A stretch of DNA of 64,000 nucleotides, from sequence record MF158045; one strand, 5' to 3'. Position numbers and translations under genes: made by a program. Shown here one piece after another: positions 10,745 through 55,573 of the stretch (position 1 is the first letter of the stretch; every line of letters begins with the position of its first letter). The notes beneath the pieces were generated by a model that saw only the letters and a list, made by a program, of their open reading frames with translations, ran no database searches and had not been told where the DNA came from. Source of the DNA: Shigella phage Sf22.

Positions 10745-10894
10745 ATTACTGCATGACTGTGATAACTGTCATGATAACACGTTGAATTCCGAACGCAAGA
10801 AGACCTCCTGCTACGGCTGGAACAACGCCTAAACCCGCCAGTAAAATGCTACCAGATACTAATGCCGCGCTTGTAATACCTATGAATGGACTCA
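10745..10894 (-). CDS. Small hydrophobic membrane peptide (50 aa), translationally coupled to gene 52
   Basis: Manual translation MSPFIGITSAALVSGSILLAGLGVVPAVAGGLLAFGIQRVIMTVITVMQ; ATG overlaps gene 52 stop (ATGA). Confidence 0.5.
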
Positions 10895-12220
10895 TTTGAT
10901 TTCCTCTAAATCTTTGGTGTATTCTGTAACTACATCAGTAGTTTTCCAATATTCGTTTTCTTCTTTTTTAGCTTTAGCTTCTTCTGCAAGTTTCTTTGCT
11001 TCGTCGGAAGTCATATGAAAAATATTCATTCCGACTAGTTTATCAACATAAGAAGAATACATCTCAATTTTAGAAAGTTCTTCAGTCAGTTCTTTACGAG
11101 TTTTACCCTGTACAACAATTTCACCTGAAATTACTTTCTTAATGAAATGTGCCTTGGCAAAGGCTAAACGAAATGCTGATTCAGTTTCTTTAATTTTGTT
11201 ATCAATTCGTTTTTGGACATAAGTTTTACGAACTTCAACAAAGTCTTTAATTAAATCAACTACGTTATCGTAAACTTGTAGCTTTCCTTTCTCATTAATG
11301 ACTGTAATATTTTGGGAACGACGCTCAATCAACCCGAAGTCTTTCATAATTTTTGCATGGCGTTCTTCTTCGTTATCGCTCAAAGAATATTCTTTACGGA
11401 ATTTAACTTTGAATCCAAACCCGTGCTCACCGCAAGCATCATCCCATGTAATGAAGCCTTTATCTTCAAGCGGGTCTAAGATTTTACTCACATAAGTTTC
11501 ACGATCATACTTATACGGAATCTCGGTGATATGCATTTGAGTTCGTGAAGTAAACTTATATGTTCCACGAATTTCATATTGCCCATCAATTTCAACGACT
11601 TCACCACGAAATTCTGGGAATTCTACCTTCGGTTTAGTTACTTTCTTTCCTTGAAGAGCTTGCAGTACAGCTTTCTTAACAGAAGAAACACTATGAGGAA
11701 GAATGTAAGTTGCATAACCAGTTGCAATACCGGAAACACCATTAAGAAGAACAGTAGGAATAATAGGCAAATAGAAAGCAGGCGGAATGTGTTCTTTATC
11801 TTGATGTACCGGAGCATATTCAGTATCTTTATATACGTTATAGAAATTTTTACTTACACGAGCAAAAATATAACGACTTGCCGCTGCCTTTTGGACAGTA
11901 CGAGAACCAAAGTTTCCTTGACCATCTAACAGAGGAAAGTTATTATTCCAAGTATTAGCCATCAAAGCACCTGCATCTTGTGCAGAGTTTTCGCCATGGT
12001 GATATCCAAGGTCCGCTACACCGCCTGCAATAGAAGCGAGTTTGTGAAACTTATCTTTATTTCCTCGTGCCAAATCAAGAGCTCGAGCAATAACAAATCG
12101 TTGAACTGGCTTAAATCCGTCAATCATATTTGGGATAGCACGATTTTCAACCGTGTACATAGCATAAGCCAGTGCTTCATTATCAATGATACTTTTTAAA
12201 TCGCGATTATTCAGTTGCAT
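10892..12220 (-). CDS. 52: DNA topoisomerase II medium subunit gp52
   Basis: 442 aa (T4 gp52 442 aa); GyrA/ParC-like N-terminus (GFKPVQRFVI). Confidence 0.95.
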   Translation of the reverse strand: MQLNNRDLKSIIDNEALAYAMYTVENRAIPNMIDGFKPVQRFVIARALDLARGNKDKFHKLASIAGGVADLGYHHGENSAQDAGALMANTWNNNFPLLDGQGNFGSRTVQKAAASRYIFARVSKNFYNVYKDTEYAPVHQDKEHIPPAFYLPIIPTVLLNGVSGIATGYATYILPHSVSSVKKAVLQALQGKKVTKPKVEFPEFRGEVVEIDGQYEIRGTYKFTSRTQMHITEIPYKYDRETYVSKILDPLEDKGFITWDDACGEHGFGFKVKFRKEYSLSDNEEERHAKIMKDFGLIERRSQNITVINEKGKLQVYDNVVDLIKDFVEVRKTYVQKRIDNKIKETESAFRLAFAKAHFIKKVISGEIVVQGKTRKELTEELSKIEMYSSYVDKLVGMNIFHMTSDEAKKLAEEAKAKKEENEYWKTTDVVTEYTKDLEEIK

Positions 12221-12357
12221 AAATTTACCATACTAGTGAATGTAGTGCCATAATAACATCAGAAATGAAAAGCACGACTTGAATTAATCCGAACATTACT
12301 CCATAATATAGTGCTACCAATAAAGTAGCAAGGGCTAATGAATAGCCCAAGATTTTC
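12221..12357 (-). CDS. Small hydrophobic peptide (about 45 aa)
   Basis: Manual translation MIKKILGYSLALATLLVALYYGVMFGLIQVVLF...; abuts the next small ORF. Confidence 0.35.
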
Positions 12358-12516
12358 TTAATCATTAGTAGATAACAACACAAATGTTAAATATGCACAC
12401 ATACCCTGGGCTAAAGCTTGTGAAAACACACTGCTAGCATCGATACAGATAGTTAAAACACATGCTACTATCCAACAAATAAATGAAATAACTCCTAATA
12501 ATTTTGCGATATTCAT
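12358..12516 (-). CDS. Small membrane protein (52 aa), paralog of adjacent ac-like ORF
   Basis: Internal Met start MNIAKLLGVISFICWIVACVLTICIDASSVFSQALAQGM preceded by SD GAGGAG; the ORF-track 62-aa start is probably artefactual. Confidence 0.5.
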   Translation of the reverse strand: MNIAKLLGVISFICWIVACVLTICIDASSVFSQALAQGMCAYLTFVLLSTND

Positions 12517-12526
12517 AATATTCTCC

Positions 12527-12682
12527 TCAACTATTTTTAGAACCAATGTACGCGAATAATGATAAAATCGCTAATACACCCTGAGCTGATGCTTGCAAAA
12601 ATACTGAAGTTTCTCCAGTTATTACTGTTCCGATGCATAAAAAGAACCAACAGAAAAAGGCTATACCGTGAACAAATTTCAT
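12527..12682 (-). CDS. ac: Small membrane protein (51 aa), ac-like by position
   Basis: Manual translation MKFVHGIAFFCWFFLCIGTVITGETSVFLQASAQGVLAILSLFAYIGSKNS; located between stp and 52 where T4 ac lies; size as I recall for T4 ac. Confidence 0.45.
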   Translation of the reverse strand: MKFVHGIAFFCWFFLCIGTVITGETSVFLQASAQGVLAILSLFAYIGSKNS

Positions 12683-12689
12683 ATTTTCC

Positions 12690-12770
12690 TCACTGGCGTC
12701 CGAAGACGCCTTTGGTTTTAAGATTGTTACGATAAAACTGCATCACATGTTCGTTATGGAAATTACTCAT
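12690..12770 (-). CDS. stp: Stp peptide (activator of host PrrC anticodon nuclease / restriction-alleviation peptide)
   Basis: Manual translation [26 protein letters not shown], 26 aa, matching T4 Stp as recalled; ATG overlaps ndd stop (TAATG). Confidence 0.9.
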
Positions 12771-13213
12771 TAATATGCCTGCAAAACAAATTTAAAGTTA
12801 TCAGCCAACATACGGTTCATTTCTTCAAGTGTTTGATACTCAGAATGATGATTACGAGTAAACGCTAAAGCTAACTGACCTTTTCCAAATCCCGTCGTCA
12901 GAGGTTTCATCTTAGAAGCAGGCAGATAAAACACCGTGTATACCATATTATTATTTGCAATAGTACGCGCAAGTTGAGACCGTCGTTGACGAATATGACT
13001 TAAAACCGCGCTGAATCCTTGCTTAGAACGCTGATTACCTACATAAAATCGTGCAGATACACATGAACCATCGAATTCACTTACTAAAAAGTAAAATCCA
13101 GGTTTAGACAAAATGTCTTTGTGTGGAGTTCCCAAAAACCACTCACCGCCCTTGATTGTACCAATAACAGTAGCGCCTGCGTTGTTCAGATCAGTAACAG
13201 CCATATATTTCAT
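12770..13213 (-). CDS. ndd: Nucleoid disruption protein Ndd
   Basis: ORF-track 163-aa frame; internal start [33 protein letters not shown] resembles T4 Ndd N-terminus, so the start was moved to 13213. Confidence 0.85.
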
Positions 13214-13273
13214 TTTAATTTCCTCTAAATTATTTTCTACTCCAAGGCCGCATGAATACATACGGCCGATAAA

Positions 13274-13489
13274 TTAATCGTCGCAGTCGACGCTCAATTC
13301 CCAAAACTCTTCTACAGTATAAGTTTCAGTATCATTTTCAATACAGAAACGTTCATTACTGTTATTTGCTAAAGTAGCGTTAACTGTCGGTTTCTCGCTA
13401 GTGCTCTTAAGAGGTGAAATACGAATTAACTGATCACCGTTATCTAAACAAAAAATTTCACCAACTTTTACATCTTTAAAACTTTTCAT
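13274..13489 (-). CDS. Hypothetical protein (71 aa)
   Basis: ORF track; in ndd-denB accessory cluster. Confidence 0.5.
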   Translation of the reverse strand: MKSFKDVKVGEIFCLDNGDQLIRISPLKSTSEKPTVNATLANNSNERFCIENDTETYTVEEFWELSVDCDD

Positions 13490-13604: not shown

Positions 13605-13823
13605 TCATTTTACACCATTCCAAATTGTTTCAACTACGGATTTTAAACCATTTTGATGAATATCCATTCCGACTACCGCCATCAAATAGATTCCAACTAC
13701 AACTGAACCTAAGGCAAAAATCAGCATGAAAATGAATAAAGCCGGAAAAATATTATCGAAAAACCATTCAATAAATGTAAAAGCACTACGTTTACGCTTC
13801 ATATTTTCCTCACATAAATCCAA
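13605..13823 (-). CDS. Small membrane protein (up to 72 aa)
   Basis: ORF track; hydrophobic segment FPALFIFMLIFALGSVVVGIYLMAVVG. Confidence 0.45.
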   Translation of the reverse strand: MDLCEENMKRKRSAFTFIEWFFDNIFPALFIFMLIFALGSVVVGIYLMAVVGMDIHQNGLKSVVETIWNGVK

Positions 13824-15099: not shown

Positions 15100-15130
15100 T
15101 TCTCTTAAAACAAAAGGGCCGAAGCCCTTA
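15100..15130 (-). terminator. UUCG-loop hairpin downstream of the 64-aa ORF
   Basis: Minus strand AAGGGC-UUCG-GCCCUU plus U-rich tail. Confidence 0.5.
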
Positions 15131-15327: not shown

Positions 15328-15346
15328 AATTTTCCTTAATATGATA

Positions 15347-15362
15347 AGGGCCGAAGCCCTTA
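15347..15362 (-). terminator. UUCG-loop hairpin downstream of rIIB
   Basis: Same AAGGGCTTCGGCCCTT element as at 15114-15129. Confidence 0.5.
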
Positions 15363-16298
15363 TTTAAATTGTTCAGTAACGTCTTCAACTACTTCGTATT
15401 GGCAGGTACGCATTTTAGCATCGTTGTAATCAATCGGAATTGATACTACATCACGCGGATGTACTTTAACTTTTACAACTCGGCTGGTTGAACTGCCAAA
15501 GTGACGAATATAAGATTTAGAACACACATGCAGACCACGAGAACAAGTTTGTGTATCATCGTCATTTACACGAGTACGTGGCATTTTAACTACTTTACCA
15601 GGACTGTTATCAAAGGTATTTGAGTGACAGTCAAAGTAATTGCTACGAACTACTTTCCAAGCATAGAAGTAACCATCTTCTGTAATTTCAATATCGTTTG
15701 CTACCAAGAAATCAAAGAGTCGAGATACCGCTTTCTGGCTTGGGTTTTCCAGCAGATTTTCCAAGAACGGAAAATAAAATTCAAAGTTTTCGCCTTTTTC
15801 CATCGAGTCAAGAATACGATCAACCAAACCAGACCGCAATTCGATATTTTGATAGAACAAGCTTCCACCTTCAATTCGAACATCGCCGGAAATATATTTT
15901 TCAACAGCGCGACGAACATTAATTTTTTGTGCCGCTTCTTCCAACTTATCTGCTACGAGCAGATTAAGAATTTCCTGGAAGTTTGAATGAGTATTAGGAG
16001 TTGCGTTATAAGTTACGCCATCAACAGTAATTGAAATGAATTTTTTAGATGCATTCCAAATAATGTCAGATTTAGCAACTGGAGCAATAACTGCATCGCT
16101 ATTAACTTTAACTGTAATATCACCGCTAATAGTAACTTTAGGGTGTTTAGCTTCTTCAGCATTTTTCAAAACACGACGGATTGTGTCAACCGATACATCC
16201 TTCCAATAAGCTAATTCCTGCTGAGTGTAATTACCACTTGAATACAGTTTAACAATTTCAGCTTGTTCGTTTTTGGTCAGGCATTTAATATTGTACAT
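15360..16298 (-). CDS. rIIB: rIIB protein
   Basis: 312 aa (T4 rIIB 312 aa); directly downstream of rIIA. Confidence 0.9.
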   Translation of the reverse strand: MYNIKCLTKNEQAEIVKLYSSGNYTQQELAYWKDVSVDTIRRVLKNAEEAKHPKVTISGDITVKVNSDAVIAPVAKSDIIWNASKKFISITVDGVTYNATPNTHSNFQEILNLLVADKLEEAAQKINVRRAVEKYISGDVRIEGGSLFYQNIELRSGLVDRILDSMEKGENFEFYFPFLENLLENPSQKAVSRLFDFLVANDIEITEDGYFYAWKVVRSNYFDCHSNTFDNSPGKVVKMPRTRVNDDDTQTCSRGLHVCSKSYIRHFGSSTSRVVKVKVHPRDVVSIPIDYNDAKMRTCQYEVVEDVTEQFK

Positions 16299-44570: not shown

Positions 44571-44630
44571 AGATATTCCTTAGTTTATAGCCCGAGTTAT
44601 TAGGCTCTTGATATATTATACTCCAAATAA

Positions 44631-44645
44631 GGGGCCGAAGCCCCT
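44631..44645 (-). promoter_or_regulatory. UUCG-loop hairpin in regA-43 intergenic leader
   Basis: GGGGC-TTCG-GCCCC (minus strand) just upstream of a TATAAT and the gene 43 RBS. Confidence 0.4.
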
Positions 44646-44648
44646 TGC

Positions 44649-54887: not shown

Positions 54888-54926
54888 ACATTATCCTCAA
54901 TTACGTTAAAATTTTATTATCCAAAA

Positions 54927-54942
54927 AGGGCCGAAGCCCTTA
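54927..54942 (-). terminator. UUCG-loop hairpin between ORFs 54940-55140 and 54561-54887
   Basis: AAGGGC-TTCG-GCCCTT. Confidence 0.4.
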
Positions 54943-55140: not shown

Positions 55141-55272
55141 TTAAATTTCCCAATTACCATTTTCATCAATGAATTTAATCCAGTCATTTACTGACCACTT
55201 AGTTGTATCGCCTTTTGGAGTAACATTTAAAGTATATAGCCCTTGCTTAAAAAGCATTCGTTTGATATTCAT
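55141..55272 (-). CDS. Small hypothetical protein (about 43 aa)
   Basis: Internal start MNIKRMLFKQGLY with SD GAGGAA; the ORF-track 71-aa frame overlaps its neighbour. Confidence 0.35.
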   Translation of the reverse strand: MNIKRMLFKQGLYTLNVTPKGDTTKWSVNDWIKFIDENGNWEI

Positions 55273-55279
55273 AATTTCC

Positions 55280-55573
55280 TCAGCTGTAACGATAACACTC
55301 GTTTGATTTACGTTTAGCAACTCGTTGAGAAGTATTATAATCAAAATCATCGTCAATGTAAACTGATTTTTTCAACTTTCTTACTTCACCACGTAATTGG
55401 CGATTTAGCTCATCTTTAACTTCTGAATCAATACCTTTCATTCTACGCCATTTATCTGAGCGAAAAATGTTTTCAACCATATCTTTATGACTTACCCCAT
55501 CAGGAGCTTTACGCTTTCCGAAATAGTCATAATCACGAACTTTCAAGTCTTTACGACGATACGTTTTACCCAT
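55280..55573 (-). CDS. Small basic protein (about 97 aa)
   Basis: Internal start MGKTYRRKDLKVRDYDYFGKRK; highly basic. Confidence 0.4.
   Translation of the reverse strand: MGKTYRRKDLKVRDYDYFGKRKAPDGVSHKDMVENIFRSDKWRRMKGIDSEVKDELNRQLRGEVRKLKKSVYIDDDFDYNTSQRVAKRKSNECYRYS

Follow-up and report, generated by a model that had tools for sequence, protein, structure and literature searches.

Tandem Ac-family membrane peptide genes between stp and 52.1 in Shigella phage Sf22

We analyzed a 64,000-nucleotide stretch of Shigella phage Sf22 (sequence record MF158045; hereafter "the window") and focused on the interval between ndd and gene 52, where two small-peptide genes of the Phage_T4_Ac family lie in tandem. 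We refer to the open reading frames (ORFs) for the 51-residue and 52-residue peptides by the working names acA and acB, with acB coordinates counted from its ATG. The locus is the classical T4 ndd-stp-ac-52.1-52 cluster; its genes are already annotated, and it represents no new kind of system. T4 has a single Ac and lacks acA, whereas the window carries both types side by side. Our overall explanation, which we consider probable though well short of certain, is that this conserved block holds two Phage_T4_Ac members in tandem, derived from an old duplication and retaining a function like that of T4 Ac.

Two Ac-family genes in the ndd-52 interval

The two peptides are true paralogues. BLASTP aligns acA and acB with 17/40 identities (43%) at an E value of 6e-10. 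Their Smith-Waterman score of 85 was reached by 0/20,000 composition-preserving shuffles of one peptide (23.8 ± 4.8, maximum 55), so the match is not due to common hydrophobicity. The same shuffle test showed no similarity of acA or acB to the 46-residue 52.1 peptide. The alignment conserves W, T, SV(F), Q, A, Q and G, including C-W at the end of predicted helix 1 and SVFxQAxAQG in the turn and at the start of helix 2, and it pairs Gly35 of acA with Gly38 of Ac. A model's earlier reading of the letters (the original prediction) had named CWxxxC and SVFxQAxAQG as strings common to both peptides and had taken them for paralogues; the strings are present as described, and the pairwise alignment bears out the paralogy with significant similarity. 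At the nucleotide level, acA and acB are 55% identical over the 40 aligned codons.

Judged by sequence, acB is the orthologue of classical T4 ac. The two genes share 99% nucleotide identity, the acB protein equals T4 Ac except for an added Thr close to the C terminus, and comparison of acB with T4, T6 and T2 reveals eight synonymous and no non-synonymous differences. acA resembles T4 Ac in length, genomic position, predicted two-helix hairpin and the SVFxQAxAQG motif with its critical Gly, but is only 37-43% identical to it (the range depends on the residues aligned) and has TGET in the turn where T4 Ac has IDAS. Like T4 ac, acA lies between ndd/stp and 52.1, upstream of gene 52. Both peptides match the phrog_2501 profile (acA, E 4.9e-26; acB, E 3.7e-25). 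The Pfam library that we used has no Ac model, hence the lack of a Pfam match for either peptide; the family model PF26944 (Phage_T4_Ac) entered only through precomputed annotations, which place it on the acA-type alleles P0004 and P0007 and on a metagenomic relative that clusters with acB. On similarity, length, fold, core Gly and gene position, acA belongs to the Phage_T4_Ac family.

The window is Tequatrovirus (T4-like phage) DNA: over positions 12100-12900 it shares 99.3% identity with Escherichia phages ECML-134 and ADUt, and this segment matches 556 phage records in all. All genes from ndd to gene 52 lie on the minus strand throughout the interval, arranged as follows.

10892..12220, minus strand: gene 52, topoisomerase II medium subunit, 442 residues; downstream anchor, named from the annotation of T4 and its relatives
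12225..12365, minus strand: 52.1, hydrophobic peptide of 46 residues; its start overlaps the acB stop by 8 nucleotides (ATGATTAA)
12358..12516, minus strand: acB, 52 residues, MNIAKLLGVISFICWIVACVLTICIDASSVFSQALAQGMCAYLTFVLLSTND; orthologue of T4 ac
12512..12532, minus strand: junction repeat copy 2, AGTTGAGGAGAATATTATGAA; acA stop, GGAG-containing Shine-Dalgarno sequence and acB start
12527..12682, minus strand: acA, 51 residues, MKFVHGIAFFCWFFLCIGTVITGETSVFLQASAQGVLAILSLFAYIGSKNS; Ac-family paralogue with no T4 counterpart
12678..12694, minus strand: junction repeat copy 1, AGTGAGGAAAATATGAA; stp stop, Shine-Dalgarno sequence and acA start
12690..12770, minus strand: stp, 26 residues; sequence equal to T4 Stp
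12695..12710, minus strand: hairpin GGCGUC-UUCG-GACGCC with a C(UUCG)G tetraloop, from sequence and fold
12770..13213, minus strand: ndd, nucleoid disruption protein, 147 residues; from ORF and translation, and labelled ndd in homologous records

The ORFs and translations agree with the gene order first proposed, namely stp plus three peptide ORFs between ndd and gene 52. The proposed sizes of 51 and 52 residues were correct; the third peptide, put at about 45 residues, has 46. The T4 reference annotation runs 52, 52.1 (46 residues), ac (51 residues), stp (26 residues) and ndd, and comparison with it matches the 52-residue ORF to T4 ac and the 46-residue ORF to T4 52.1, with the 51-residue ORF as the extra gene.

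GenBank and PHROGs already contain this extra Ac gene, which many of the listed GenBank records call 'acridine resistance', and Pfam covers its alleles; our literature search found no paper on a second Ac gene or on the tandem arrangement. Our additions are the identification of the copy that corresponds to T4 ac, the placement of T4 Ac in a divergent clade, a census of four states in which the junctions give evidence that losses were independent, and a view in which small membrane peptides occupy the interval as a variable slot. The census counts GenBank phage records including duplicate GenBank/RefSeq entries, and all its numbers are approximate.

acB present, any arrangement: 458 records
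acA present at the DNA level: 91 records
tandem acA-acB junction: 49 records (47 by an independent count of two Ac places)
T4-type (stp-acB): ~350 records, by subtraction
T2/T6-type junction, with an acA 3' remnant kept: ~56 records
acA only: ~42 records, by subtraction

Examples of tandem phages are ECML-134, PST and the BASEL phage Bas41 (FriedrichZschokke). The acA-only phages include RB32, RB68 and wV7, and the RB32 annotators described its ac as 'more similar to RB69'. In the Mosigvirus, Jiaodavirus and Dhakavirus phages examined, a single acA-like gene has a stop codon that overlaps the 52.1 start. A scan of IMG/VR with 52.1 gave 16 loci, too few for a full census. The acA protein of the window shares 71-78% identity with its RB32, RB68 and wV7 counterparts and 48% with a Mosigvirus protein. 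It falls in the same clade as the RB32/RB68/RB69-type ac alleles; those end in ...KND and a stop codon that overlaps the 52.1 start, whereas acA of the window ends in ...KNS and a stop codon, after which come a spacer of its own and the second Ac gene. In a distance tree, acA groups with the Mosigvirus protein and acB with P0009, a metagenomic peptide of seemingly intermediate type; acA and acB are 37-38% identical in this comparison, as low as between genera. On sequence grounds, the acA type is the older and more widely distributed one, and T4 Ac belongs to the divergent clade of the two.

Both genes are under purifying selection. The acA protein is 100% identical in at least 14 GenBank phages, and among acA alleles the ratio of non-synonymous to synonymous substitution rates (dN/dS) is 0.2-0.5. 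The family as a whole is small, as judged by the few members recovered: a word-indexed search of 5.8 billion proteins returned 7 Ac clusters, and an exhaustive hidden Markov model search of 1.84 billion representatives returned 8 matches, of which 6 are ~50-residue peptides. The other 2/8 are short patches within large proteins, which we judged spurious. All traceable members come from T4-like enterobacterial phages, and several metagenomic representatives were left untraced.

Origin of the tandem pair

The stp-acA (AGTGAGGAAAATATGAA) and acA-acB (AGTTGAGGAGAATATTATGAA) junctions are degenerate direct repeats that bracket acA. Aligned to the window, T4 shows a clean 166-bp gap that comprises acA and one ribosome-binding site, and the junction repeats explain its precision, as its ends fall exactly between them. 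We propose that T4 lost acA through a 166-bp deletion between two similar ribosome-binding-site repeats. Phages T2, T6 and FN also lack acA but still carry its last 18 nucleotides together with the GGAG spacer (in FN at 100% identity); what is left of acA follows Stp codon 18 in frame and gives rise to Stp tails of the form NFGILG(F/S)KNS. The T2/T6-type arrangement is most simply read as a second, independent deletion from a tandem ancestor, one that would have joined the stp 5' end to the last acA codons. We conclude that the pair is old and that at least two lineages derive from the tandem state by loss. The most likely source of the pair itself is an old event in which a unit consisting of a ribosome-binding site and ac was duplicated in tandem, and duplication in situ is plausible because the acA-acB junction repeats the ribosome-binding site of the stp-acA junction.

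The start motif at these junctions recurs elsewhere. Its 13-nucleotide core, TGAGGAAAATATG, at the stp-acA junction is invariant before four different downstream cassettes in related phages. The 15-nucleotide form, TGAGGAAAATATGAA, occurs in 9 copies at ≤2 mismatches in the whole window, against 0.73 expected, all of them on the minus strand; examples of this stop-overlapping ribosome-binding-site and start motif lie at 12678-12692, 13798-13812 and 55268-55282 (all minus strand). This sequence represents a genome-wide ribosome-binding-site consensus and a possible substrate for short-homology deletions and duplications.

Other peptides occupy the same place in related phages. In several ~170-kb IMG/VR relatives, including JS98/Dhakavirus, the slot holds hydrophobic phrog_9347 peptides of 53-54 residues; we considered these as Ac relatives and rejected the idea, as profile-profile comparison with hhalign gave Probab=0.85 (that is, 0.85%). 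A 57-residue phrog_5941 peptide can sit between ndd and stp. Peptides of this family (57-59 residues, ...FERICK...) directly follow ndd in loci L006 and L007 (1037-1210), L019 (798-971) and L022 (1153-1332), replacing stp in the Klebsiella-phage loci L006 and L007 and in L022; in JS98 (L019) stp comes next.

Two loci carry composite arrangements. JS98 (L019, NC_010105; positions 960-1510), like L020, carries a module made up of a variant form of stp, an acA-like gene and a 5' fragment of 52.1 with a frameshift; a GAGTAAT microhomology joins this module to an ATG-less second stp, after which come a phrog_9347 peptide and intact 52.1. A T4-like locus without stp (L029, Logan contig SRR8048111, positions 720-1200) carries a phrog_9347-type peptide and then the Ac-family peptide P0009 between ndd and 52.1. 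P0009 has a TTGESRVF turn and a CAYLTF helix 2, features that look intermediate between acA and acB.

These arrangements raise the tentative and rather doubtful idea that ndd-to-52.1 is a combinatorial slot for one to three interchangeable two-helix membrane peptides of ~50 residues, each an effector directed at the host envelope (for example, an inhibitor of a resistance-nodulation-division (RND) pump). The slot would extend from the stp hairpin and ribosome-binding site to the 52.1 start, and at least three unrelated families would use it (the two Ac clades, phrog_9347 and phrog_5941). Were this so, acA and acB would form a sub- or neo-functionalised duo with different targets or a heteromeric product, and the laboratory strain of T4, which has one copy and has served for all Ac work, would display a reduced system. 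Promoter-early stem-loop (PeSL) cassettes are known to mediate modular shuffling in T4-type genomes (PMC2839356, PMC4122927). The locus is like PeSL cassettes in that short repeated regulatory motifs bracket small variable ORFs, with indels and replacements exactly at the motifs; it differs in that the repeat is a 15-21-nucleotide ribosome-binding-site and start sequence. The PST/T4 comparison reports no PeSL at the ndd-52 locus, and we rejected a PeSL element here: such a cassette has an early sigma-70 promoter behind its stem-loop, and no promoter-like site follows the stp hairpin on the minus strand.

How the pair came about can be told in a second way, which we take seriously without expecting it to be right: two alternative cassettes may have been stacked by illegitimate or short-homology recombination between co-infecting phages with different Ac types. 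Several observations weigh against our preferred duplication and fit such stacking. Synonymous divergence (dS) among acA alleles is 0.32-0.55, 3-10 times that of the flanks (0.03-0.10 in the adjacent 52.1), which speaks for exchanged cassettes more than for plain vertical inheritance; hence the slot is a mosaic in which recombination frequently exchanges old alleles. Because the acA/acB split is of inter-genus depth and acB groups with the metagenomic P0009 rather than with acA, duplication in situ is not proven. Stacking further fits the occupation of the slot by unrelated peptides (phrog_9347, phrog_5941) in other phages, the further stacked combinations in JS98 and contig L029, and the genome-wide repetition of the motif that bounds the cassettes. 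Yet the acA-acB junction resembles the stp-acA copy with small indels, as a head-to-tail duplication predicts, and acA and acB are homologous whereas the other stacked pairs are not. We thus regard duplication in situ as somewhat more likely than stacking. The local duplication originally predicted stands as regards paralogy and the repeated junction; the event is ancient, given 55% nucleotide identity, and its in-situ origin is not proven.

It is very improbable, in our judgment, that acA is a decaying, non-expressed remnant and that acB alone matters. In its favor, the T4-type and T2/T6-type lineages lost acA independently of each other, which makes at least two losses, and the acA match falls in two pieces in one GenBank record. 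The acA ORF is nonetheless intact and preceded by a consensus T4 ribosome-binding site, its protein is fully conserved in the records noted above with dN/dS < 1, and the acA type is the only Ac gene of RB32, RB68, wV7 and other genera. The locus is a clean case of gene loss and stacking at ribosome-binding-site repeats within a T4 variable region.

Predicted fold and function of the Ac peptides

AlphaFold2 predicts helices at residues 2-22 and 26-49 of acA (predicted local distance difference test score, pLDDT, 75) and at residues 3-24 and 28-51 of acB (pLDDT 77). Both models are helix-turn-helix, with hydropathy and charges compatible with a membrane hairpin, in agreement with the membrane character first ascribed to these peptides; ESMfold likewise gives T4 Ac two helices (bioRxiv 10.1101/2025.06.30.662393). 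Both peptides have a Lys near the N terminus and an acidic residue in the turn, with a C-terminal Lys in acA or Asp in acB, charges from which we infer a compatible topology with both termini cytoplasmic and the turn periplasmic. In this model, the ~50-residue Ac peptides would form two-helix hairpins in the inner membrane with cytoplasmic ends, and the (TGET)SVFxQAxAQG turn motif would face the periplasm. A PDB sequence search with the Ac-family profile gave no match at E ≤ 1, and Foldseek comparison of the acB model with the PDB returned generic helical hairpins only, all at E > 1.

For 60 years, T4 Ac has served as a genetic marker. A recent preprint reports that knock-out of T4 ac leads to acriflavine resistance, that Ac expression sensitises E. 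coli to acriflavine and ampicillin, that G38R inactivates Ac, and that the variant with the additional Thr, the form in the window, is functional and wild-type-like when taken from phage PP01 (bioRxiv 10.1101/2025.06.30.662393). Its gene set is 93-100% identical to T4 ac and the second type is unmentioned (bioRxiv 10.1101/2025.06.30.662393). As Gly38 of T4 Ac is the Gly of the AQG that acA shares, we infer the same kind of activity for acA, namely a T4 Ac-like drug sensitisation. By analogy with T4 Ac, the peptides would insert into the host membrane early in infection and let acridines and other efflux substrates build up inside the cell, possibly through interference with AcrAB-TolC, and two diverged copies would broaden or reinforce the sensitising activity.

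Three points count against this functional assignment. The AcrAB-TolC link is one preprint's proposal that Ac blocks the pump (bioRxiv 10.1101/2025.06.30.662393), which a 2026 PNAS paper repeats as an assumption (PMC13250531). Our literature search found no phenotype report for acA-type proteins, and BLASTP of Ac against AcrZ gave no alignment at E ≤ 100. AcrZ is a 49-residue E. coli inner-membrane peptide with one transmembrane helix that binds AcrB and modulates the substrate preference of the pump. The likeness is a functional analogy only: AcrZ, like Ac, is a small inner-membrane peptide, and the AcrB-containing pump that it binds is the proposed Ac target, but AcrZ has one helix where Ac is predicted to have two, and it modulates the pump where Ac is proposed to block it.

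Distinct roles for the two peptides, which we think unlikely, would take the form of a hetero-oligomer, of modulation or antagonism, of different envelope targets such as other RND pumps, or of a non-efflux process such as general permeability or superinfection exclusion. Consistent with such roles, both copies are intact with strong ribosome-binding sites in 47-49 records that include many named phages; acB is under very strong purifying selection and acA alleles are diverse, above all at the C terminus; and only the turn motif is common to the two peptides, with different helices. Earlier literature, moreover, read Ac as a permeability change rather than as an efflux effect (bioRxiv 10.1101/2025.06.30.662393). 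Against this, a single type suffices in most T-even phages (~400 records with acB only, ~42 with acA only), and as single-type phages are common, neither copy depends on the other. A shared, T4 Ac-like activity remains the reading that we prefer. For tests of AcrAB-TolC blockage, it matters that many natural T-even phages carry the other Ac clade or both, that no segment other than the turn motif surrounding the essential Gly is strongly shared, and that tandem, acA-only and acB-only phages are ready natural variants.

The acA and acB ribosome-binding sites are both of the GAGG type. The acB site (12517-12529, minus strand) contains a GGAG, also present in T2, T6 and FN, whereas the T4 ac site, GAGGAAAA, has none. 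GGAG is the motif cut by the T4 RegB endoribonuclease. Because GGAG is in the acB site and not in that of T4 ac, Ac expression may be regulated differently in the tandem and T4 arrangements.

The stp hairpin and neighboring features

Stp of the window is a 26-residue peptide identical to T4 Stp (Pfam PF08133, E 2e-21; phrog_6763). The T4 protein inhibits type IC restriction and triggers the host PrrC anticodon nuclease, the latter link having been drawn correctly in the original prediction; its N-terminal 18 residues are essential, and deletion of the C-terminal 8 only moderately reduces activity (PMC3014915). The GGCGUC-UUCG-GACGCC hairpin predicted within stp exists, at 12695-12710 rather than at 12693-12708, a shift of 2 nucleotides. 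As predicted, this mRNA structure overlaps the Stp C-terminal codons, spanning codons 21-25 and the first base of codon 26. Its 6-bp stem has a local fold of -12.2 kcal/mol (z = -3.1), with 1/200 shuffles as stable; the whole 131-nucleotide ndd-stp-acA junction RNA is not exceptional (z -0.34), and the local hairpin alone stands out.

CUUCGG is 2.5-fold enriched in the window, with 32 copies where 12.6 are expected. Of these copies, 14, the stp copy included, have stems of 5 bp or more (5-9 bp), and 12/14 lie on the early-gene (minus) strand. The stemmed copies are mostly of the AAGGGC-UUCG-GCCCUU type, at least 9 of the other 13 are intergenic, and examples lie at 15114-15129, 15344-15363, 44629-44646 and 54926-54941. 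Intercistronic C(UUCG)G hairpins are a classical T4 feature (Tuerk et al. 1988, as summarised in PMC4371310). The stp hairpin shares with them the loop, the closing pair, a 6-bp G+C-rich stem, the early-gene strand and a ribosome-binding site immediately downstream; the T4 hairpins are intergenic, whereas the stp copy lies inside the last codons of a coding sequence. It is thus a common T4-type CUUCGG hairpin that is not peculiar to stp and is unusual only in its coding-sequence location.

The hairpin ends 3 nucleotides before the acA GAGG (12691-12688) and 12 nucleotides before the acA AUG; being clear of the GAGG, it would not mask the ribosome-binding site. We propose that it serves as an mRNA punctuation mark or stabiliser just upstream of the next ribosome-binding site, not as a regulator of Stp. 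GVFGR and the stem are kept in Stp variants that differ at 5/9 of the preceding residues (12-20). The three substitutions seen in the hairpin, GGC to GGU (giving a U-G pair), the terminal C to U (giving a G-U pair) and the loop change from UUCG to UUUG, all leave the stem intact. This retention hints at selection at the RNA level. A sense-strand intrinsic terminator was rejected, as the stem is followed by AGUGAGGAAAAUAUG and no U-tract. On the plus strand (12695-12720), the palindrome precedes the T-rich TTTGGTTTTA (UUUGGUUUU) and scores as intrinsic-terminator-like; in principle, it could stop antisense transcription.

The palindrome might instead have no RNA function on the sense strand, either as a by-product of the Gly-Val-Phe-Gly-Arg codons or as the antisense (plus-strand) terminator, an alternative that we rate as quite improbable. 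The terminator-like plus strand suits it, as do the unexceptional fold of the whole junction and the absence of any Rfam match at E ≤ 1 in a scan of 12000-13400. Our punctuation model is further weakened by the loss of the hairpin in T2, T6 and FN, which also suits this alternative and which came without obvious harm, and by variation too limited for a covariation test, with three variant types only. Conversely, GVFGR and the exact stem are kept although the last eight Stp codons are largely dispensable, every substitution preserves the stem, and the enrichment and strand bias of CUUCGG described above argue for a sense-strand role.

Flanking the pair, Ndd of the window is 99% identical to RB68/wV7 Ndd and 92-93% identical to T4 Ndd (tblastn). 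The 52.1 peptide is 98% identical to T4 gp52.1 and matches Pfam DUF7396 (PF24129; E 3.5e-23 over residues 1-46) and phrog_3595. The ndd stop codon overlaps the stp ATG (TAATG), and this overlap, together with that at the 52.1 start (ATGATTAA), suggests translational coupling; 52.1 would be a translationally coupled membrane peptide unrelated to Ac. Inside 52.1 (12303-12331, minus strand), a promoter-like TTGCTA-17-TATTAT overlaps the inverted repeat TGCTACTTTATTGGTAGCA a short way upstream of gene 52 and may be a middle or early promoter for that gene. Upstream of ndd, at 13605-13802 (minus strand), one 65-residue membrane ORF (MKRKRSAFTF...WNGVK) is the counterpart of T4 ndd.3 and ndd.2a together. 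In the T4 reference, 1 nucleotide is deleted right after this ATG (ATGAA[G]CGTAAA), with two short ORFs annotated there, and T4 ndd.3 and ndd.2a may be one frameshifted gene.

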